64,000 nucleotides of DNA from the IMG/VR virus record IMGVR_UViG_3300044556_000025, positions 1 to 64,000 of that record. One strand, 5' to 3'. The notes beneath the pieces were generated by a model. It was not told the DNA's origin. It was given only the letters and a program-made list of their open reading frames with translations, and did no database searches. Shown in pieces: positions 397-10,040 of the stretch (positions are counted from its first letter, which is position 1; every line of letters starts with the position of its first letter). The position numbers and the translations under genes were made by a program. This DNA comes from a virus. Lineage: Duplodnaviria > Caudoviricetes.

Positions 397-1875
397 ATGT
401 CAAAGTTCAACGAAAAGCTTTCTACTTCTGCAAACGCCTCTCATCCATCTTACGAAGGCGGGTCTGTTTTCTACAAGTCTTCGCTAAACGAATGGCTTAA
501 TATACTTTTGTCTTCTAAACTTCAAGACGGATACTACGAAGATGAAGACACTATAGAGGGAAGATTCTTAGATCTTACACGTACAGTTATAGCGATATCT
601 GGTCCAGAGTTTGCTGCAAAGTCGGCAATATTTGCTCGTCGAGAGGTTGGTATGAGGTCGACTTCCGAACTTGTAGCGGCAGTTCTTAACGAATACAAAT
701 TTGAACAGAAACGTTCTTTCTATTCTAAGTTTTTCTATAGGCCTGACGATGTCGCAGAGGTGTTTGCAGCTGTAGATATGTTAGGAGGAAAGAAGTCTCA
801 CGGTCTCCTTAAAGGTGCGTCTAATTATCTCTCTACACTGAACGCATACCAACTAACAAAATACAAGCTCACAAGTCACAAGTATAGTATGTATTCGTTG
901 ATTGACTTGACGCACCCTAAGTCAGTATACATTGACGACTTCTGCAATCATCGTCTCTCTAAGCCCGAAACATGGGAGGTATTAATCTCTTCGTGCAGAG
1001 ACGAAAATGACAAAGCGCTCCGCTGGAAATATCTCGTTGACAACCGAAAGCTGGGCTATCTTGCACTAATTAGGAATTTGAGGAATGTTGTGCGTAGTGT
1101 TTCATCTATAGAGAGTGATTTCTATAGCTGGCTAGAAAGTACGCTCTGCCCTCAAGTAGAAGACAACGAGTCGATTCTAAAATCACTCGTATGGCCGTAT
1201 CAGATTTATACGGCTTATAGGTCGTTTGGCAGTGAAGCTGACATCCCATTCCCGTTGATTAATAGTTTACATAAAGCATTCTACTCTTCGTGCAAGAATT
1301 TGCCGTCGTTGCCGGGAAAGACACTAGCTGTTCTAGACGTTTCAGGATCAATGAATTGCCCATATACCACTACGCTTTCTATTGTCGATACGTGCGCTTC
1401 GTATCTTGCTGGGTTCTTAGCTGCAGACAGCGACCTTGACGTTGTCAAATTCGGAACAAACTGCCGTAAATTTGTCTGCCCCACATACAGAGACTCTAAC
1501 TCTATGGATGTCGTATATAAACTCACAAAGAACGACAACTGTGGGGGTAGCACTAACATAGTTTCGGTATTCGAGTATCTCATAGACAACAAACTTAGTT
1601 ATGACAGCATTTTATTATTCTCTGACATGCAAGTTATGGGAGATTGGTCTTGCGTACGGGGGTTTGGTGCAACTAGATACAATTTTGACGAGTATAAGAA
1701 GACTTGCGGTAAGAGCCATATATACAGCTTTGACCTTGGGAATTATTCCGATCAAATTGTTTCTAAAGATACCGATATCACATATCTAACAGCTATAAAC
1801 CCGTCTGCGTTTAAATTAATTTCTCTAGGAGATTACGAAAACGTCAAGGCTTACGTAGAATCATATAGTCTATAA
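397..1875 (+). CDS. rsr: Ro60/Rsr (TROVE + vWA) RNA-binding protein
   Basis: TROVE motifs ARREVGMRS, RPDD, YQLTKY, LTHPK, ETWE, GYLALIRNLRN; vWA MIDAS DVSGSM, GGSTN, FSDMQ. Confidence 0.92.
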   Translation: MSKFNEKLSTSANASHPSYEGGSVFYKSSLNEWLNILLSSKLQDGYYEDEDTIEGRFLDLTRTVIAISGPEFAAKSAIFARREVGMRSTSELVAAVLNEYKFEQKRSFYSKFFYRPDDVAEVFAAVDMLGGKKSHGLLKGASNYLSTLNAYQLTKYKLTSHKYSMYSLIDLTHPKSVYIDDFCNHRLSKPETWEVLISSCRDENDKALRWKYLVDNRKLGYLALIRNLRNVVRSVSSIESDFYSWLESTLCPQVEDNESILKSLVWPYQIYTAYRSFGSEADIPFPLINSLHKAFYSSCKNLPSLPGKTLAVLDVSGSMNCPYTTTLSIVDTCASYLAGFLAADSDLDVVKFGTNCRKFVCPTYRDSNSMDVVYKLTKNDNCGGSTNIVSVFEYLIDNKLSYDSILLFSDMQVMGDWSCVRGFGATRYNFDEYKKTCGKSHIYSFDLGNYSDQIVSKDTDITYLTAINPSAFKLISLGDYENVKAYVESYSL

Positions 1876-1888
1876 TGTTTAACTACAT

Positions 1889-1963
1889 TCCTCGATAGCG
1901 CAATGGTAGAGCATTCGGCTGTTAACCGAAGTGTTGCAGGTTCGAACCCTGCTCGAGGAGCCA
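1889..1963 (+). tRNA. tRNA-Asn(GTT)
   Basis: Canonical cloverleaf; anticodon arm TTCGG-CTGTTAA-CCGAA; encoded CCA; 13 nt after the Ro60 stop. Confidence 0.95.
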
Positions 1964-1971
1964 TAAACTCT

Positions 1972-1999
1972 AAGCCTAAACCTAAGGTCTAGGCTTTTT
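1972..1999 (+). terminator. Intrinsic terminator
   Basis: AAGCCTA...TAGGCTT followed by TTT. Confidence 0.7.
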
Positions 2000-2018
2000 G
2001 TTTGGCAAACTATTCTAT

Positions 2019-2052
2019 AGGTATTGACTTTTCATCATTCATTCTTTATATT
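2019..2052 (+). promoter_or_regulatory. sigma70-type early promoter (AGGTATTGAC family)
   Basis: TTGACT-17-TATATT; same upstream context at four other sites. Confidence 0.8.
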
Positions 2053-2107
2053 ATTTTCAAGTAGGGAATGCCTACGCTAGTCATCTATCAACAGTTAGGA
2101 GAAACAT

Positions 2108-2377
2108 ATGACTAGTATTACAAAGTCCGACGAGGACATCAAGCGAGAAGCTTACGAGTACATCGATCCGGGTAACATGAATCAGCTTCTCGAGCTCACC
2201 TCTCATAGCGATCTGTTCGACACTGATCTTGTCGGAGAGAACGATGAAGGCGAAGTAGTGCTCACGTCAATCCACGAAGACTATATCCTCATGATTACAT
2301 ATCAGTCTAACAACTGGATCCGCAAGAATTACTATCATATAGACGGAACGTGCGAAGAGCTCTACTCTCACGAGTAA
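2108..2377 (+). CDS. Hypothetical early protein
   Basis: AGGAG RBS, own promoter and terminator, C-ending codon bias. Confidence 0.8.
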   Translation: MTSITKSDEDIKREAYEYIDPGNMNQLLELTSHSDLFDTDLVGENDEGEVVLTSIHEDYILMITYQSNNWIRKNYYHIDGTCEELYSHE

Positions 2378-2383
2378 ACGTAG

Positions 2384-2415
2384 AAGCGCCCAGACAGACT
2401 CTGGGCGCTTTATTT
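2384..2415 (+). terminator. Intrinsic terminator
   Basis: AAGCGCCCAG...CTGGGCGCTT followed by TATTT. Confidence 0.8.
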
Positions 2416-2488
2416 ATGCCGAGTTTCGTTAGTGATAAAAGAAGCAAGCGATGTCAAATATTCAAATATTTTAGCAAATTTCATATTT

Positions 2489-2524
2489 AGGTATTGACAT
2501 TTCGTCGGTTTCGTTTAATATAAT
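2489..2524 (+). promoter_or_regulatory. sigma70-type promoter upstream of the RNA cluster
   Basis: AGGTATTGACA...TAATATAAT; spacer is long (19 nt to TATAAT). Confidence 0.6.
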
Positions 2525-2603
2525 ACACGCAAGTCAAAGAAAGAAGATGTCTTGCAGTATTAGAGTTCAACTTGACAATCGAATAAATTCGTTAATGCTT
2601 ACA

Positions 2604-2842
2604 TAGTCGATTCGCTTGCTTTTGCAAGCTTTCGAAGCGAGGTTCGAACTAACAGAGGAAATTTCAAGCTTTTCTCCTTTCCAAAGGCACTGGACACACA
2701 CTCTGTTAGGGGCTCGGTAAGATTCCGAGGGGGTCGGAGACTCGGCCCTAACGCTTATTTGGCAGTGGAAGCCCCAAACATTGCCCACCGGTAACGTAAA
2801 ACAGAGGGCCCTCGTTGGCGGAGTGGTAAAGCCAACCCGGTG
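2604..2842 (+). ncRNA. Unclassified structured RNA leading the tRNA operon (Y-RNA candidate)
   Basis: Dense helices: TAGTCGA/TCGAACTA, CTAACAGAG/CTCTGTTAG, CTCGG/CCGAG, GGCAGTG/CATTGCC, CACCGG/CCGGTG, GTTGGC/GCCAAC; no credible ORF. Confidence 0.5.
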
Positions 2843-2843
2843 T

Positions 2844-2919
2844 GGGTCCGTAGCTCAGTTGGTAGAGCAGGAGACTTTTAATCTCAAGGTCCGCGGTTCG
2901 AACCCGCGCGGTCCCACCA
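2844..2919 (+). tRNA. tRNA-Lys(TTT)
   Basis: Cloverleaf; GAGA-CTTTTAA-TCTC; encoded CCA; one T-T mismatch in the acceptor stem. Confidence 0.93.
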
Positions 2920-2921
2920 TT

Positions 2922-3015
2922 GGAGAGTTGGCAGAGTCTGGCCGATTGCAGGCGCCTCGAAAGCGTCCGAGCTTAGCAATAAGCTCCGAAGGTTCGAATC
3001 CTTCACTCTCCGCCA
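2922..3015 (+). tRNA. tRNA-Ser(CGA)
   Basis: Long variable arm GAGCTTA-GCAA-TAAGCTC, G73, CCA. Confidence 0.93.
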
Positions 3016-3016
3016 T

Positions 3017-3127
3017 GCGGCAGTAGTTCGTATGGGCCCTTAGCGTGCCTGACGCTAAGATAGTCCGAGGTAGAACGCCTGGTGTCCAATCAGGAACTCT
3101 GGGTTCGAGTCCCAGCTGCCTGCTCCA
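3017..3127 (+). ncRNA. tRNA-Gly(TCC)-derived RNA with a ~33-nt hairpin inserted in the D-loop
   Basis: GCGGCAG acceptor, GTTC/GAAC D-stem, CCTGG-TGTCCAA-TCAGG, CTGGG-TTCGAGT-CCCAG, U73-CCA; insert 3034-3066; G at position 33; bulged T in the acceptor stem. Confidence 0.75.
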
Positions 3128-3147
3128 GCTTTTCGTGACAGCTCAGA

Positions 3148-3221
3148 GGGCCCTTAGCACAGCGGCCTAGTGCATCGAGCTCATAACTCGCGGATCGTCC
3201 GTTCGAATCGGACAGGGCCCA
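3148..3221 (+). tRNA. tRNA-CAT, probably Ile2 (Met not excluded); no encoded CCA
   Basis: GGGCCCT/AGGGCCC acceptor with C4-G69 and C5-G68; CGAG-CTCATAA-CTCG; flanked by a 12-bp inverted repeat. Confidence 0.85.
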
Positions 3222-3257
3222 CTGAGCTGTCACAAGTGATAGAAGAGGCATCAGCAT

Positions 3258-3339
3258 ACCGGGTTGGCGGAATTGGCAGACGCAGGAGACTCAAAATCTC
3301 TCGCCTAATCGCATATGGGTTCGAGTCCCATACCCGGTA
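3258..3339 (+). tRNA. tRNA-Leu(CAA); no encoded CCA
   Basis: ACCGGGT/ACCCGGT; GGAGA-CTCAAAA-TCTCT; variable arm; flanked by an 11-bp inverted repeat. Confidence 0.88.
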
Positions 3340-3375
3340 CGCTGATGCCTCAAATTTTGTATAAGTGGGGGCAAA

Positions 3376-4350
3376 ATGGAAGTAACTTCAAAACACCGAC
3401 AAATCGTATACTTCTATAACAAGATCCTTGGGCTATCGTATAAGTATCTTCATGACAAATATCAACTGTCCGAACGCGCGCTTAGAGATATAGCTGACGG
3501 AAAAGAGTTTCTGTCTTCTAGATATATCAGCACTCTTAAACTGCTTGATATCTTAGGGGTATCGATTCCCGATTTCTTGCCCCCAGAATCTAGAGCTTAT
3601 ATACTGAAGACACAGATTAGACCTAAAGTTAAGCGCTGGCACGAAATCAACAATGTTTCACTGAGGTCTATCTCTCGTATTACTCATGTTAACTTTCAGA
3701 CCATTAGGCATATTTATTACGAAGTGACAGAAAACGTAGAAGTTAAGACTATTCGGTTGATTTTGTTTGCCCCGAAAGATATGTCTGTGGAAAAGTCAAC
3801 GTTAACATATGACGCTTCTCAGTATGTCCAGGATATGGATAGGTGGATCCGCGACGGCATTCCTACAAAGACTATATGTTTCTATTGTGACGGTTTGACT
3901 CCCGCGCTTATAGGAAATCGGCACATGTACAGCCGGGTTTCGTATGATTCGTTTATGAGTTATATGCGAGGAAAAGATGAATTAGATAAACTTGCATACG
4001 CGATAGAGTTTAACACAGATCCGTCTAAGGCTCTAGAAGAAGCCGGAATCGCGAGGAGATATCGAACTTGTCAGGTATGCGGCAAGAAGTTTGTTGACAA
4101 CTCGAAGAGCGATACCAAATACTGCTCTAATAAGTGTTATAAAGAAGCTCAAAAAGCTATCCATCGAGAGTCTAGACGAAAGAAAGCTACTAAGTACGAA
4201 AAAGTTTGCCCAATGTGCGGAACTAAATTCGTTACTACATATGCACATAAAATTTATTGTTCTAAAGAGTGTTCGTCAAAACACAAGAACGAAGTTCGTC
4301 GTATTAAAAACAAACAGAAGCGCGAAGAAGGTGATGTTAGTGGACGTTAG
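3376..4350 (+). CDS. Multi-HTH protein with two C-terminal CxxC..YCS..C zinc fingers
   Basis: XRE-like N-terminal repeats; CQVCGKKF..YCSNKC and CPMCGTKF..YCSKEC. Confidence 0.7.
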   Translation: MEVTSKHRQIVYFYNKILGLSYKYLHDKYQLSERALRDIADGKEFLSSRYISTLKLLDILGVSIPDFLPPESRAYILKTQIRPKVKRWHEINNVSLRSISRITHVNFQTIRHIYYEVTENVEVKTIRLILFAPKDMSVEKSTLTYDASQYVQDMDRWIRDGIPTKTICFYCDGLTPALIGNRHMYSRVSYDSFMSYMRGKDELDKLAYAIEFNTDPSKALEEAGIARRYRTCQVCGKKFVDNSKSDTKYCSNKCYKEAQKAIHRESRRKKATKYEKVCPMCGTKFVTTYAHKIYCSKECSSKHKNEVRRIKNKQKREEGDVSGR

Positions 4351-5005: not shown

Positions 5006-5743
5006 ATGGCCTTCAAGTCAATGGTTGAGTACAACAACGAGCGCTACAGCAACTTCTTCATCCTTCGAAACGACGGGGACTCTGCAGAGGTTATCCCTCT
5101 ATTTCAGAGCAGCAACGACGCAATGACTGTAGCTTGTCACTATATCAAGAGTGACAATTATTCGGGGTACGTTCAGTGCCTTGGACCGCAAACTTGCCCA
5201 GCCTGCAAGCGTAATATTCGAGTTGAGAACAAGTTCTTTATTCCGCTATATGACATCGACTCACAGAAGATTGTATTCTGGGATCGCAGCACTCGTTTCT
5301 TCCAGCAGTTCGACATGGCTGTGTTCTCTAAGGTAGGGAATCCGTCAGAGTTTGTGTTTAGGATTACTCGTCGAGGAGCTGCGGGCGATCGTAATACTCG
5401 TTACGATATTGTTCCTGTATATCGTAACAACTTGATTTCGTACGATGAGATTCTGAAGAAGTTCGACGTATCTTTCCCCGACTATTATAACACCGTTTGC
5501 CCGGAGTGGTCGCTTTCTGAGTTCGATAAAAATCTGTCTCCCGCATCGTCGAACACTAACGTAGATCTCGCTAACATGCCTGAGTATAAGATCTCTCCTC
5601 GAGGCATTATCGGCTCTGACGAATCCTCACAGCCGGACCTTCCCGACTTCACTAGCGAAGAGGCTGAGGATGAGAGCAACGGCAACAGTGATGACGTCGC
5701 AGAGCCTATTTCCGAGGAAGACATTGACAACGTGTCATTCTAA
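5006..5743 (+). CDS. gp32-like ssDNA-binding protein
   Basis: H..C..CPAC Zn site, ITRRG..RNTRY, acidic tail ending in F. Confidence 0.8.
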   Translation: MAFKSMVEYNNERYSNFFILRNDGDSAEVIPLFQSSNDAMTVACHYIKSDNYSGYVQCLGPQTCPACKRNIRVENKFFIPLYDIDSQKIVFWDRSTRFFQQFDMAVFSKVGNPSEFVFRITRRGAAGDRNTRYDIVPVYRNNLISYDEILKKFDVSFPDYYNTVCPEWSLSEFDKNLSPASSNTNVDLANMPEYKISPRGIIGSDESSQPDLPDFTSEEAEDESNGNSDDVAEPISEEDIDNVSF

Positions 5744-5770
5744 TATGAATAGATATATCTAGGAGGAACA

Positions 5771-7828
5771 GTGGGCCTTTTTAGTAATTCTCAAGTAGCT
5801 GCAATAAACGAAGTAGCTAAGAAGAGCAAAGCTATTAAGGCTCCTACAAACACTAGTCGTGTTTCATCTGTAAACGATGAGCTCATTCAGTCTTCTAAGG
5901 CTGTCGAAGAGTACTTCAAGGACAGCAAAGCGATTCTGATTACTACAAAGCCGCAGCTTCACGATTACGTGACTGCGGCTATTTCTGTAGGAATTGTTGG
6001 AATAGATACTGAGACAACGGGCCTCGACCGAAACAACGACTACATTGTAGGAGCTTCTCTTTACTACCCCGGCGGCGTAGAATGCTATATAGCAATGAAA
6101 CATAGAGTGCCCGTATTTGAGACACCATACAACAATCAGCTTTCTTACAAAGACGTAGCAGATGAACTATATCGGTTTGTAGAACACAAAACAAAGCTCG
6201 TATTTGCAAACGCCAACTACGACTTGTATATGATTTGGAAAGATTTACATGTAGATTTAGACTCTTGTTTCTACTACGACGTAATCTTAGCTTGGCGTTG
6301 TATGAAAGAGGACGAGCTACACAACGGTTTGAAGGAACTTTATAACAAGTATGTGCTGAAAGGCAAAGGGGATCCGAAGCGATTCTCTGACTTCTTCTCG
6401 CCTAAACTGTTCCCATACTCAAAGCCAGACGTCGCGAAGCTGTATGCCGCAAACGACGCTAAAATTACGTATGACTTGTACGTATGGCAATATCAATACT
6501 CTAACCCGAAGTCTGAGAAGTGTAAGAAAAATCATCTAGAAAACATTGCTCAGCTTATCTGGAATCTCGAGTTCCCTCTAGTACACGTTTGTCAGACAAT
6601 AGAGCGAACAGGCATGTACATAGATCAAGACATGGGCAAAGTGCTTCATAACAAGTACTCGGCACTCTACGAGCAAGAGTTTAACAAGCTAGGTTCGATG
6701 GTTGACGAAATTATAGAAAATAACCCCCAGCCAATGTCTTCAAAGAAGCCTCCGTTTACGTCTAGCAAAGACTTCAACCCTAAGTCAACGACACACGTTC
6801 AATATCTTCTTTATACGCTATTAGGGATTCCGAAGGTAGAAGGCAAGATGCCTACGGGCAAGGAGTTCTTAGACGAGGTAAATCTTCCTGTGGCGACGCA
6901 AATTGCAAAAGTTCGCAGTCTTGCAACGAACATCAATACGTTCGTTGACAAGTTGCCTGACGGAGTAGCTAAAGACGGCCGGATCCACGCTGACTTCAAG
7001 CAAATTGGCGCAGCGTGCGTCACAGGAGACACTGTAATTTGGACGTATGAAGGTCCAAAACCCATAGAAGACATCTACGAAGAGTCGTTTGGTCGAGAGC
7101 TCGATGAATACACATCGGGCGAATATAAAGACTGTGACGACCTTCAGCTATATAACAAATACGGTGATTTAGAAAAAGTATCAAGTATTGTCGGGTATTA
7201 CAATCAACCCGTAGTGACTGTTCATCTATCTAACGGATCGTCTATTACTGGTACTTATCACCACTTAGTTCTTTGTGTAAAGAGCGAAGACGAAGACATA
7301 TCTCAGTGTCTCGACAATTATACAGAGTTTAGGACGCTGAGTTCTATTAAAAAAGACGATATTATAGTGTGTATGTGTGACGATACAGATTTTTCGTCGG
7401 TAGGATACGAGTATGCATACGTAACTCATATAGACTTTGAAGATAACTCTAACGTATACGATGTCGTAATGCCTCAAACACATTCGTTCGTCGGAAACGG
7501 AATTGTCAATCATAATACTGGCAGGATGAGTTCAGCTGCGCCGAACCTACAGAACATACCTTCGAAACTTAATGATATTCGTCATCTCTTTCGCGGTGAC
7601 CCAAAACGCATCGAGGACGTATCCGGTGAAGTAGACGGCAACGAAGTCACATTCAAACTTCGTAAGTTTTCTAAAGTAGCGACAGGTTCAAACGAGCTTT
7701 CATTTGTAAATGATCTGACTATTGGGAGTTCTGTTATCATTGATAAAGACGGAATGTCTAGTTGTTTAAAAGTATCTGCAATAAAGCCTTGTTACGACCA
7801 AAAGTTTGTATATGTCACCTTAGAGTAA
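5771..7828 (+). CDS. polA: Family A DNA polymerase, N-terminal half (3'-5' exonuclease + thumb), with intein
   Basis: DTETTGL, NANYD, YAANDA, GRIH, TGRMSS..PNLQNIP. Confidence 0.92.
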   Translation: MGLFSNSQVAAINEVAKKSKAIKAPTNTSRVSSVNDELIQSSKAVEEYFKDSKAILITTKPQLHDYVTAAISVGIVGIDTETTGLDRNNDYIVGASLYYPGGVECYIAMKHRVPVFETPYNNQLSYKDVADELYRFVEHKTKLVFANANYDLYMIWKDLHVDLDSCFYYDVILAWRCMKEDELHNGLKELYNKYVLKGKGDPKRFSDFFSPKLFPYSKPDVAKLYAANDAKITYDLYVWQYQYSNPKSEKCKKNHLENIAQLIWNLEFPLVHVCQTIERTGMYIDQDMGKVLHNKYSALYEQEFNKLGSMVDEIIENNPQPMSSKKPPFTSSKDFNPKSTTHVQYLLYTLLGIPKVEGKMPTGKEFLDEVNLPVATQIAKVRSLATNINTFVDKLPDGVAKDGRIHADFKQIGAACVTGDTVIWTYEGPKPIEDIYEESFGRELDEYTSGEYKDCDDLQLYNKYGDLEKVSSIVGYYNQPVVTVHLSNGSSITGTYHHLVLCVKSEDEDISQCLDNYTEFRTLSSIKKDDIIVCMCDDTDFSSVGYEYAYVTHIDFEDNSNVYDVVMPQTHSFVGNGIVNHNTGRMSSAAPNLQNIPSKLNDIRHLFRGDPKRIEDVSGEVDGNEVTFKLRKFSKVATGSNELSFVNDLTIGSSVIIDKDGMSSCLKVSAIKPCYDQKFVYVTLE
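7016..7516 (+). mobile_element. Mini-intein (167 aa) in Pol-N
   Basis: C1 CVTGDT, block B GTYHH, VYD..HSF..NG.VNHN|T. Confidence 0.92.
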
Positions 7829-7994
7829 GGTTTGCATAAAGAGAGAAGACCTTCCAGACGAAACGATACGAAAATAAGAATTAAGTATTGACAATTGACA
7901 GAAAACTTCGTTATACATCGCATAAGCAATGAGTATATAGAAAACCGACGCATAGTCACATCGAAGGGCAGGGATTTAATGATTAGCGTTCTAG

Positions 7995-10040
7995 GTGATG
8001 TACATGTATAAGATACATACAGAGACGCCTGAATATGTCGTAATGTCTTCCGACTTTAGTCAGCAAGAGCCTAGGCTTCTTGCATTCTGCGCTCGAAGCC
8101 AAGAGCTTATTGAAGCCTTTAAACAAGGTAGAGACATTTATTCGACAATTGCGGCTATCGCATATAACATGCCTTACGAAAAATGCCTCGAATTCAACCC
8201 AGACACAGGGGAGTATCAACCAGACGGCAAAGCTCGCAGAAGCGAAGCTAAGACAATTGTACTTGGCATTGCTTACGGTCGTTCTGTCCCGTCAATTGGC
8301 GAGCAGCTTTTTAGTCACAACGATGAAATGTCAGACGAAGACAAAACCAAAGAAGCTCAGCGCATTTACGATTCTGTAATGAAAGCTTTCCCAGAACTCG
8401 AAGCGTTGATGAAGAGCGCTCAGGCATACGCACGCAAGCACGGGTACACAGAGACAATCCTCGGTCGTCGGCGCCATCTCCCAGATATGACGCTCCCTGA
8501 GTTTGAGTTTAAGCCTCTGCCGGGATACGTTAACCCTGACATTGACCCGCTAGATTTGTCAAGTCTTGAAAACGCAGAGACAGGAATCCCTGAGTCTAGA
8601 ATTAAACAGCTAGAGCAAGAGTTTCATAAGTATAAGTATTTCGGTCAGATTGCTAGGCGTACCAAAGAGCTTTACGAGAAAGAACACATTAGAGTTATCA
8701 ACAATAGACCGAAGATAAACGATGCTCGTCGGCAGTGCGTAAACTGCGTAGATGACGAAACAGAGATACTGACATTAAACGGATGGAAGACATTTGACAA
8801 AGTTTCAAAAGGCGACGAAATAATTTCTTACAATTTAGGCAAGAACTGTCTAGAGCGTGACGTTGTGAACGAAGTTATCAGTGAAACCTCTGATGACGGC
8901 TTTGAGTTATATCATATGTACAACAAGAACTTCAATTCTATGTCCACGCTAAACCACCGTTGGGTGACGAGAACTGACGACGTAAACGATAGAAAGTATC
9001 GAATTTACGATACTTCGCATCTTGTGAGCGTAAAGAACCCCCGCTATCAAATTCTTCGAATTGCCGATTATGAATGCGAAGATAATTCACAGTTTTTTGG
9101 GAAAGTTGAATTTGTATGCGAGTCTATTTTCAAAAACAGTATTTCGTATAGAGACATATTGTCTTTGAGTGGCAGCTTTGCCAAAAAGTGCTATAGCTGG
9201 ATTTTCGATAATAAGTCTGCCCGCGGAGCTGTTGTTGTGAAAGACAAAGAGGTAGCAAGCAAGCTACAAACTTTGGGCATTTTAGCAGGAAAAGTTTGCA
9301 ACGTAAACGAAACAGTTTCTGTCGACGGAACTTCTTCTTATAGAGTTTCATGGTCTGAAATTAACAAGCCGTATAACGATGTTGCTAGGATAAAGTCTCT
9401 TAAGAAAGAAAAAGTTTCTAGAAACCACGTATGGTGCGTTTCGACAAACAACGGAACATGGGTTGCTCGTCGTTCGGGGACGTGCTTCATAACTGGAAAC
9501 TCTATTATTCAGGGTTCGGCAGCTGACTTTACTAAAATGGCATTACTAAAGCTCTGTCGAGATCCTAGATGGGAAGCGTGCGGCGGCGAGATATTAACTG
9601 TAGTACACGATGAAATCATTGCTCAAGCCCCTGTCGATTTCGCAGAAGAAGCTGGCAAGGTACTGCAGTCTGACATGGAAGGCGCCGGCTCTTTTCTGCC
9701 GTTCCCGATTAACTGCGATGTTACAACGACATACCGCTGGTACGGTCTAGAAATTCCTTGTAAGTTCGATGTACCTACAGACTTAAGCTTAAACTCTGAA
9801 AACGATCTTTCTTGGGTACAGTGGCATCTAGTCGAGATGGGGTTCGAGCTCCCTAATTTCAAAGACAAAAACGGAAACGACCCTATCGGCGATGCGGCTC
9901 ACGGAGTTTCAGGACAATTGTCAGATGAAATGATTAAAGCTATTGAAACGTACTGCGATCGTTATCATATCAGTAAGGACAGTTTCATAGATGACATTAG
10001 GCAACGTGTTGAAACTGGAATAGTAGAAAGGGCAAGTTAA
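7995..10040 (+). CDS. polA: Family A DNA polymerase, C-terminal half (motifs A/B/C), with intein
   Basis: DFSQQEPR, RSEAKTIVLGIAYG, IQGSAAD, VHDE. Confidence 0.92.
   Translation: MMYMYKIHTETPEYVVMSSDFSQQEPRLLAFCARSQELIEAFKQGRDIYSTIAAIAYNMPYEKCLEFNPDTGEYQPDGKARRSEAKTIVLGIAYGRSVPSIGEQLFSHNDEMSDEDKTKEAQRIYDSVMKAFPELEALMKSAQAYARKHGYTETILGRRRHLPDMTLPEFEFKPLPGYVNPDIDPLDLSSLENAETGIPESRIKQLEQEFHKYKYFGQIARRTKELYEKEHIRVINNRPKINDARRQCVNCVDDETEILTLNGWKTFDKVSKGDEIISYNLGKNCLERDVVNEVISETSDDGFELYHMYNKNFNSMSTLNHRWVTRTDDVNDRKYRIYDTSHLVSVKNPRYQILRIADYECEDNSQFFGKVEFVCESIFKNSISYRDILSLSGSFAKKCYSWIFDNKSARGAVVVKDKEVASKLQTLGILAGKVCNVNETVSVDGTSSYRVSWSEINKPYNDVARIKSLKKEKVSRNHVWCVSTNNGTWVARRSGTCFITGNSIIQGSAADFTKMALLKLCRDPRWEACGGEILTVVHDEIIAQAPVDFAEEAGKVLQSDMEGAGSFLPFPINCDVTTTYRWYGLEIPCKFDVPTDLSLNSENDLSWVQWHLVEMGFELPNFKDKNGNDPIGDAAHGVSGQLSDEMIKAIETYCDRYHISKDSFIDDIRQRVETGIVERAS
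8745..9500 (+). mobile_element. Intein (252 aa) in Pol-C with a degenerate endonuclease remnant
   Basis: CVDDETEILT, TLNHRW, VWCVST..ITGN|S. Confidence 0.9.

Follow-up and report, generated by a model that had tools for sequence, protein, structure and literature searches.

Leader–trailer helices around CCA-less tRNA genes of a tailed phage: a rare, recurrent design with a possible role in precursor processing

The window analyzed here is a stretch of 64,000 nucleotides that forms part of an IMG/VR phage record (IMGVR_UViG_3300044556_000025) of 92.5 kb, estimated to be 61% complete. A Ro60/TROVE gene is followed on the same strand by a cluster of tRNA genes, two of which, a tRNA with the anticodon CAU and a tRNA-Leu(CAA), encode no CCA and are each enclosed by an inverted repeat (Table 1). 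The repeat places leader and trailer in one helix, which we call a clamp.

Table 1. Positions of the two clamped tRNA genes and of upstream features in the window.
Feature	Position	Strand	Remarks
Ro60/TROVE gene	397..1875	+	PF05731, E = 2e-16; context only
Promoter-like site upstream of the RNA cluster	2494..2521	+	10/12 consensus matches, 16-nt spacer; consensus match only
Clamp 1, 5' arm (leader -13 to -2 of tRNA-CAU)	3135..3146	+	perfect complement of 3222-3233
Leader position -1 (A)	3147	+	mismatch opposite discriminator A3221; 1x1 internal loop between clamp and acceptor stem
tRNA, anticodon CAU, without encoded CCA	3148..3221	+	RF00005, 59 bits, full model
Clamp 1, 3' arm (trailer positions 74-85)	3222..3233	+	
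A-rich spacer, 11 nt	3234..3244	+	single-stranded; separates the two clamped units
Clamp 2, 5' arm (leader -13 to -3 of tRNA-Leu)	3245..3255	+	perfect complement of 3341-3351
Clamp 2 junction	3256..3257	+	A3256 (-2) mismatched with C3340; T(-1) pairs with discriminator A3339
tRNA-Leu(CAA), without encoded CCA	3258..3339	+	RF00005, 53.3 bits
C74 (mismatched), then clamp 2, 3' arm (3341-3351)	3340..3351	+	

Both the sequence and a repeat finder give 12 Watson–Crick pairs out of 12 for clamp 1 and 11 out of 11 for clamp 2. Each flank helix prolongs the acceptor stem across one mismatch, and clamp and acceptor stem together make up, at each tRNA, a 20-nt inverted repeat that is 95% complementary. 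The two clamps have no common sequence, and neither arm is found elsewhere in the window. Both genes are called by ARAGORN and by Rfam (RF00005; cut-off 29 bits, model positions 1–71), and both tRNA bodies are canonical, with intact 7-nt anticodon loops that carry U33 and all conserved tRNA positions in place. Folding of each precursor yields the cloverleaf together with the clamp (z = -6.0 and -5.8); none of 200 shuffles folded as well. CCA is encoded by tRNA-Asn, tRNA-Lys, tRNA-Ser, and an uncalled tRNA-Gly-like gene, and the record's remaining 28.5 kb beyond the window contain no further tRNA. The initial annotation had described two tRNAs, the only ones lacking CCA, inside perfect 11–12 bp repeats that are unrelated to each other and leave a single mismatch at each junction; every element of that description proved exact, including the positions.

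The promoter-like site is the only one ahead of the RNA cluster, which argues for a single precursor covering 2530–3360. The structured stretch that begins there, tRNA-Lys, tRNA-Ser, the Gly-like gene, and both clamped tRNAs are probably joined in one transcript. The stretch itself (2530–2800) follows the promoter-like site and precedes the first tRNA; its roughly 270 nt are non-coding and rich in helices, and its sole Rfam match is a weak one to RAGATH-36 (30 bits, cut-off 70).

Several pieces of this array resemble parts of its tRNAs. The tRNA-Gly(UCC)-like gene (3017–3126) is called by neither ARAGORN nor Rfam (22.5 bits, partial match) and encodes CCA. It carries a G at position 33, a bulged T in the acceptor stem's 3' strand, and a 43-nt D-loop insert. 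The insert opens with 11 nt that exactly repeat the 5' end of tRNA-CAU (3034–3044), and an inverted copy of part of this comes next. A 15-mer of its T arm (3100–3114) is identical to one in tRNA-Leu (3316–3330). Just 5' of tRNA-Lys, positions 2802–2812 are an exact 11-nt copy of tRNA-CAU leader and acceptor strand; nearby, a direct copy of tRNA-Leu nucleotides 6–14 (2814–2822) and an inverted copy of its nucleotides 1–11 (2831–2841) form a small hairpin. Judged by sequence, the pieces at 2802–2844 look like fold-back or recombination scars among tRNA genes.

The window has 42% G+C, AUA accounts for 38% of its isoleucine codons, and UUG is well used. Given this share of AUA, a lysidine-type phage tRNA-CAU would be useful, and the candidates for the identity of the tRNA are Met and lysidine-type Ile. 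A BLAST search with tRNA-CAU did not separate Met from Ile2; its acceptor stem presumably resembles that of E. coli ileX. Neither this record nor the complete genome of the related phage described below was found to encode a CCA-adding enzyme, RNase III, or RtcB, so host enzymes would have to act. One solitary type I-E CRISPR-like repeat lies beyond the window (G000:C1:64244-64271, or L390:244-271), and a degenerate pattern of type I-E-like repeat matched arrays almost only in Actinomycetota genomes; a host in Actinomycetota is, on this basis, only a lead. The tRNAs of an Arthrobacter phage are mostly CCA-less, in contrast to those of this phage. Within the window, a family A DNA polymerase is encoded as two ORFs (5771–10040), the first of which has an intein-splicing-domain match.

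We compared the locus with the one relative that keeps the orthologous tRNA-Leu, a distantly related, complete 163-kb phage (L001) whose Ro60 is 44% identical to that of the window. In both genomes, Ro60 is followed by a tRNA array whose last member is tRNA-Leu(CAA), then by a PTPS-like gene (36% identical) and a further gene (57% identical), and because this order is kept, the two tRNA-Leu genes can be regarded as positional orthologues. The L001 junction is that of the window, with a T(-1):A73 pair and an A.C mismatch. In the alignment, all 19 pairs of clamp and acceptor stem are formed in both sequences. Ten of the 19 are changed on both sides, including six of the 11 clamp pairs; one clamp pair is G-C in one phage and G.U in the other, and none is broken. 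Slid-alignment controls gave pairing of only 28–42%. The closest homologues of the window's Ro60 are 97% and 48% identical to it. Viral-contig scans with the window's Ro60 and DNA polymerase returned no close relative, and the scan with the L001 Ro60 returned one, at 51% identity.

A further locus, L388, offers a comparison among paralogues. It contains three tRNA-CAU genes with identical anticodon and T arms. Two of them differ only at pair 1:72, lack CCA, and are enclosed by mutually unrelated clamps of 13 and 16 bp; the third, which encodes CCA, is unclamped. From a perfect consensus promoter, transcription is predicted to begin at or close to the first base of one 5' arm, and the helix would therefore join the very ends of the predicted primary transcript. 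The genes belong to a duplicated module (L388:770-2066, minus strand) of tRNA-Leu, clamped tRNA-CAU, and CCA-type tRNA-CAU, with consensus promoters ahead of each unit; in one copy, the CCA-type gene has decayed.

Leader–trailer complementarity was then surveyed across phage tRNAs with a script that finds, for each tRNA called by ARAGORN, the acceptor stem and the longest leader/trailer helix starting no more than 3–4 nt from it. Loci were fetched by Ro60, by a tRNA-CAU pattern, by tRNA-Leu patterns, and as whole tRNA regions of large phages. In the pooled sample of 939 non-redundant phage tRNAs, a clamp was defined by at least 9 Watson–Crick flank pairs. Flank helices had at most 7 such pairs throughout, save for nine outliers with 9–15, among them the window's two. 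All nine belong to the 348 CCA-less tRNAs, and none to the 591 that encode CCA (p = 1.2e-4). They comprise tRNA-CAU and tRNA-Leu(CAA) of the window, tRNA-Leu(CAA) of L001, tRNA-Gln and tRNA-Thr of G003, tRNA-Pro of the jumbo phage G004, two tRNA-CAU of L388, and tRNA-Pro of the complete phage G050, which amounts to five identities, with a CAU anticodon in three cases. Most come from phages whose other tRNAs encode CCA: 7/60 CCA-less genes are clamped in CCA-rich phages versus 2/248 elsewhere (p = 2e-4; p = 0.003 with the window left out). Unclamped CCA-less tRNAs are numerous, with 53 in CCA-rich phages and 246 elsewhere.

All nine clamped genes fold as a cloverleaf plus helix (z between -3.9 and -9), and no two of the nine clamps have the same sequence. 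From position -1 outward, the extensions span 13, 13, 16, 15, 13, 13, 13, 16, and 11 layers, exactly 13 in five of the nine, a geometry whose statistics are thin at n = 9. C74 and U(-1) were considered as clamp-specific features and rejected, the background being equal (77% C74, 59–75% U(-1)). The tRNA-CAU pattern retrieved 13 tRNAs, 12 ending in CCA and one CCA-less (L082), all unclamped. A metagenome scan, in which bacterial tRNA-Leu genes predominated, gave a sample of 149 mostly bacterial tRNAs, and none of these had a strong clamp. Neither the clamped locus of L388 nor that of G003 has a counterpart in any cultured phage searched. A weaker case is a tRNA-Ile(UAU) without CCA (L036:2478-2567), which has an unusual variable arm of about 22 nt and an 8-bp AT-rich flank helix, with a T:A73 pair and an A.C mismatch as in the tRNA-Leu junction. 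The clamped "tRNA-Thr(CGU)" of G003 (L264:12128-12210) is 83 nt long, its interior is a poor cloverleaf (z = -3.9), and it may be a non-standard tRNA.

The flank clamp is a rare, recurrent design of CCA-less phage tRNA genes. The compensatory changes in L001 and the L388 paralogues with unrelated clamps indicate that the helix is maintained. Among interior pairs of the nine helices, read in the tRNA sense and flanked by further pairs, six exceptions to Watson–Crick pairing are G.U and none is A.C; this argues, within a small sample, for selection at the RNA rather than the DNA level. By these sequence comparisons, pairing is most likely maintained at the RNA level. The initial annotation had held that the structure appears selected, had suggested a survey of phage tRNA flanks, and had regarded a lack of conserved pairing in relatives as evidence to the contrary. 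Selection, as opposed to accident, is borne out by the compensated L001 orthologue, which keeps all clamp pairs, and by the recurrence of clamps in unrelated phages, on CCA-less tRNAs only.

What the helix does is a matter of interpretation. Free leaders and trailers are generally regarded as necessary for tRNA maturation in bacteria, and 3' exonucleases and RNase Z need single-stranded flanks. In the reading that we favor, both genes would specify ordinary tRNAs used in decoding. Pairing of 13 leader nucleotides with the trailer would lengthen the acceptor stem of each precursor by about one helical turn and bury both precursor ends. Until it is cut or opened, the helix would keep out RNase P, which has to bind the leader, as well as RNase Z and the 3' exonucleases, because pairing of the leader is inhibitory to bacterial RNase P and neither exonucleases nor RNase Z can take in a paired trailer. 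That RNase P prefers unpaired leaders, which the initial annotation had taken as known, is documented for the bacterial enzyme, for which leader pairing is an anti-determinant (PMC9433436).

The most likely opener would be the host double-strand endonuclease RNase III. The clamp alone measures 11–16 bp; about two turns of helix, or some 25 layers, result only if it stacks on the acceptor and T stems (12 bp), and the mature ends would then lie at the center of about 25 bp, which is why RNase III is favored. By itself, 12 bp is short for this enzyme, which leaves 2-nt 3' overhangs. A staggered cut would produce a tRNA end at 73 or 74, to be completed by the host CCA-adding enzyme, and since such a cut would remove an encoded CCA, this would account for the exclusion of CCA from clamped genes. 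The purpose would be a nuclease-protected, stable precursor and a maturation route separate from that of the CCA-encoding neighbors. We give roughly even chances to a processing or stability stem on decoding tRNAs, probably opened by RNase III before CCA addition, where both the nuclease and the purpose are what we infer. Some points weigh against it: the RNase III argument needs coaxial stacking across a mismatch, the helices are almost wobble-free near the tRNA, which also fits a recent DNA-level origin, and the 53 and 246 unclamped CCA-less phage tRNAs do without a clamp.

More tentatively, the clamp may define a route that bypasses or gates RNase P and RNase Z or exonucleases, in which one double-strand cut in the middle of the ~25-bp helix would generate the 5' end and a 3' end at 73/74 in a single step, perhaps replaced in Ro60 phages by Ro60-assisted trimming, and which would supply a separately controlled pool of decoders. 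RNase P may also be enough on its own, acting directly on clamped precursors: at mascRNA, the eukaryotic enzyme benefits from a lengthened acceptor stem that leaves a single base unpaired 5' of the cut (PMC8457004).

The main rival explanation, which we consider unlikely, operates at the DNA level. A nascent strand would fold back on the acceptor-stem repeat and copy the leader over CCA and trailer (quasipalindrome template switching), leaving the clamp as a tolerated scar without RNA function. This scenario accounts at once for the perfect arms and for the constant absence of CCA, and it agrees with the uniqueness of the arm sequences. It is also a credible origin because the array holds other fold-back pieces derived from the 5' ends of these same two tRNAs (3034–3059, 2802–2812, and 2814–2841). 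A scar would not, however, be expected to persist without a broken pair in orthologues whose neighboring proteins are only 36–57% identical, nor to occur on both L388 paralogues despite their unrelated flanks. The reciprocal product, with the leader overwritten and CCA kept in the helix, is absent from the 591 CCA-encoding genes, the interior mismatches are all G.U, and the lengths cluster at 13. We consider an origin by fold-back, followed by retention for an RNA function, the most coherent history.

Proximity to Ro60 suggests another partner, though we think a Ro60-linked function improbable. Here the 5'/3' helix would enable Ro60 to bind or act on the precursor, whether as a Y-RNA-like partner or in Ro60-assisted trimming of the paired trailer. 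With the Ro60 gene 1.3 kb upstream and in the same orientation, the clamped tRNAs fall within 4 kb of it, as looked for in Y RNA genes, and L001 and the jumbo phage G004 encode Ro60 too. Clamped tRNAs share with the Y RNAs Yrn1 and YrlA (RF02553; PMC4201824) a tRNA-shaped module, a helix of the 5' and 3' ends, and a place beside Ro60, and in Deinococcus radiodurans Yrn1 the Ro60-binding stem is on the acceptor side of the tRNA-like domain (PMC4201824). Unlike Y RNAs, they are complete tRNAs with anticodon loops and without the Ro60 motif, and clamps also occur without Ro60: the complete phage G050 has no TROVE gene, yet its tRNA-Pro is clamped. A search of 1800–3500 with RF02553 gave no match at E up to 10, and the order of arms is that of a normal tRNA; the GNCGAA(N)G-type Ro60 motif has no match between 2380 and 3400, and hence none in the arms. 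The clamp sequence, moreover, is different in every case, and L001 has a separate YrlA-like RNA.

Nor are clamps enriched near Ro60. They occur on 1/135 tRNAs in Ro60-selected viral loci outside the window and on 0/37 in four cultured Ro60 phages, and Ro60 is common in tRNA-rich phages anyway (4/16 near-complete tRNA-bearing records). With G050 clamped and Ro60 this frequent, we rejected an association of clamps with Ro60 as unproven. The gating by Ro60 that the initial annotation had raised is correspondingly weakened as a general mechanism. The YrlA-like RNA of L001 is a weak full-length match directly after Ro60 (L001:5505-5617; RF02553, 28.9 bits, E = 5e-4), and a second stretch at about 5700–5800 of that locus begins with a similar 10-mer. 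Since the window has no YrlA match, the structured stretch at 2530–2800 may be the partner RNA of this phage's Ro60.

The remaining alternatives fare worse. Stable, non-chargeable decoys, a second suggestion of the initial annotation and here taken to absorb a host tRNA-targeting defense, are very unlikely. Blocking of both ends would indeed make a precursor stable and not chargeable, and CAU is the anticodon in three of the nine clamped genes, but these are canonical tRNAs with intact anticodon loops and conserved positions, their anticodons match codons heavily used by the phage, and clamped tRNAs have five different identities. We see a very slim chance that the repeats are the termini of a tiny mobile cassette carrying a tRNA gene. 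They do bracket the whole gene, orphan tRNA-CAU 11-mers lie 100 and 340 nt upstream, and a decayed tRNA-CAU sits beside L388 copy 1; against this, each clamp has its own sequence and no arm is repeated in the window, the flanks are not halves of a split tRNA, no target duplication is seen, the orphan fragments do not flank clamped genes, and the L001 orthologue holds position and geometry with changed sequence. A MITE-like or mobile hairpin cassette was accordingly rejected for want of repeated termini, target duplication, or a flanking split gene. Transcription terminator or insulator hairpins are hardly credible: although the array ends with the tRNA-Leu clamp, whose L001 counterpart runs into a T run, no terminator-like site was found, the loop would be 75–85 nt, and clamp 1 and the clamps of G003, G004, and L388 have no T run. 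An intrinsic terminator was rejected because there is no short-loop, GC-rich hairpin with a U tract, and an archaeal bulge-helix-bulge because the junction has only a 1x1 mismatch rather than two 3-nt bulges around a 4-bp helix.

The processing stem that we favor has relatives elsewhere. Processing stems of leader and trailer have precedents in rRNA, scRNA, and eukaryotic pre-tRNA-like substrates. The precursors of bacterial 16S and 23S rRNA and of B. subtilis scRNA are described as having leader–trailer stems cut by RNase III (PMC10250234, PMC1935012). Clamps resemble such stems in that the flanks of a stable RNA pair around the mature molecule, with the pairing kept and the sequence free; they differ in that the cargo is a single tRNA, the helix of 11–16 bp abuts the acceptor stem, and cutting by RNase III would be our proposal. 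The folds, the L001 comparison, and the nine helices together show what is expected of a processing stem, namely a flank helix with conserved pairing and free sequence. T7-type RNase III signals consist of an upper stem, an internal loop that holds the cut site, and a lower stem. Like these, a clamped precursor has two stems of about 12 bp with a small internal loop at the expected cut; unlike these, its upper stem would be supplied by a folded tRNA, through the acceptor and T arm. The tRNA-CAU junction also recalls MALAT1-mascRNA, where an extended acceptor stem leaves one base unpaired immediately 5' of the site of RNase P cleavage, but there the enzyme is nuclear RNase P and the extension comprises a few pairs instead of a full turn (PMC8457004).

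Our literature search found no description of flank clamps as a class of phage tRNA genes tied to the loss of CCA. Because unrelated phages have it too, in each case on CCA-less tRNAs, the clamp looks like an undescribed way of handling tRNA precursors. For tRNA gene finders and phage annotators, it is a feature to flag, and the nine natural examples, with their compensatory variants, could serve as substrates in assays of RNase III, RNase P, RNase Z, and Ro60. Phage tRNAs with paired ends and no CCA, as a conserved class, would imply either an alternative processing route or a device that delays or stabilizes the phage's own decoders.
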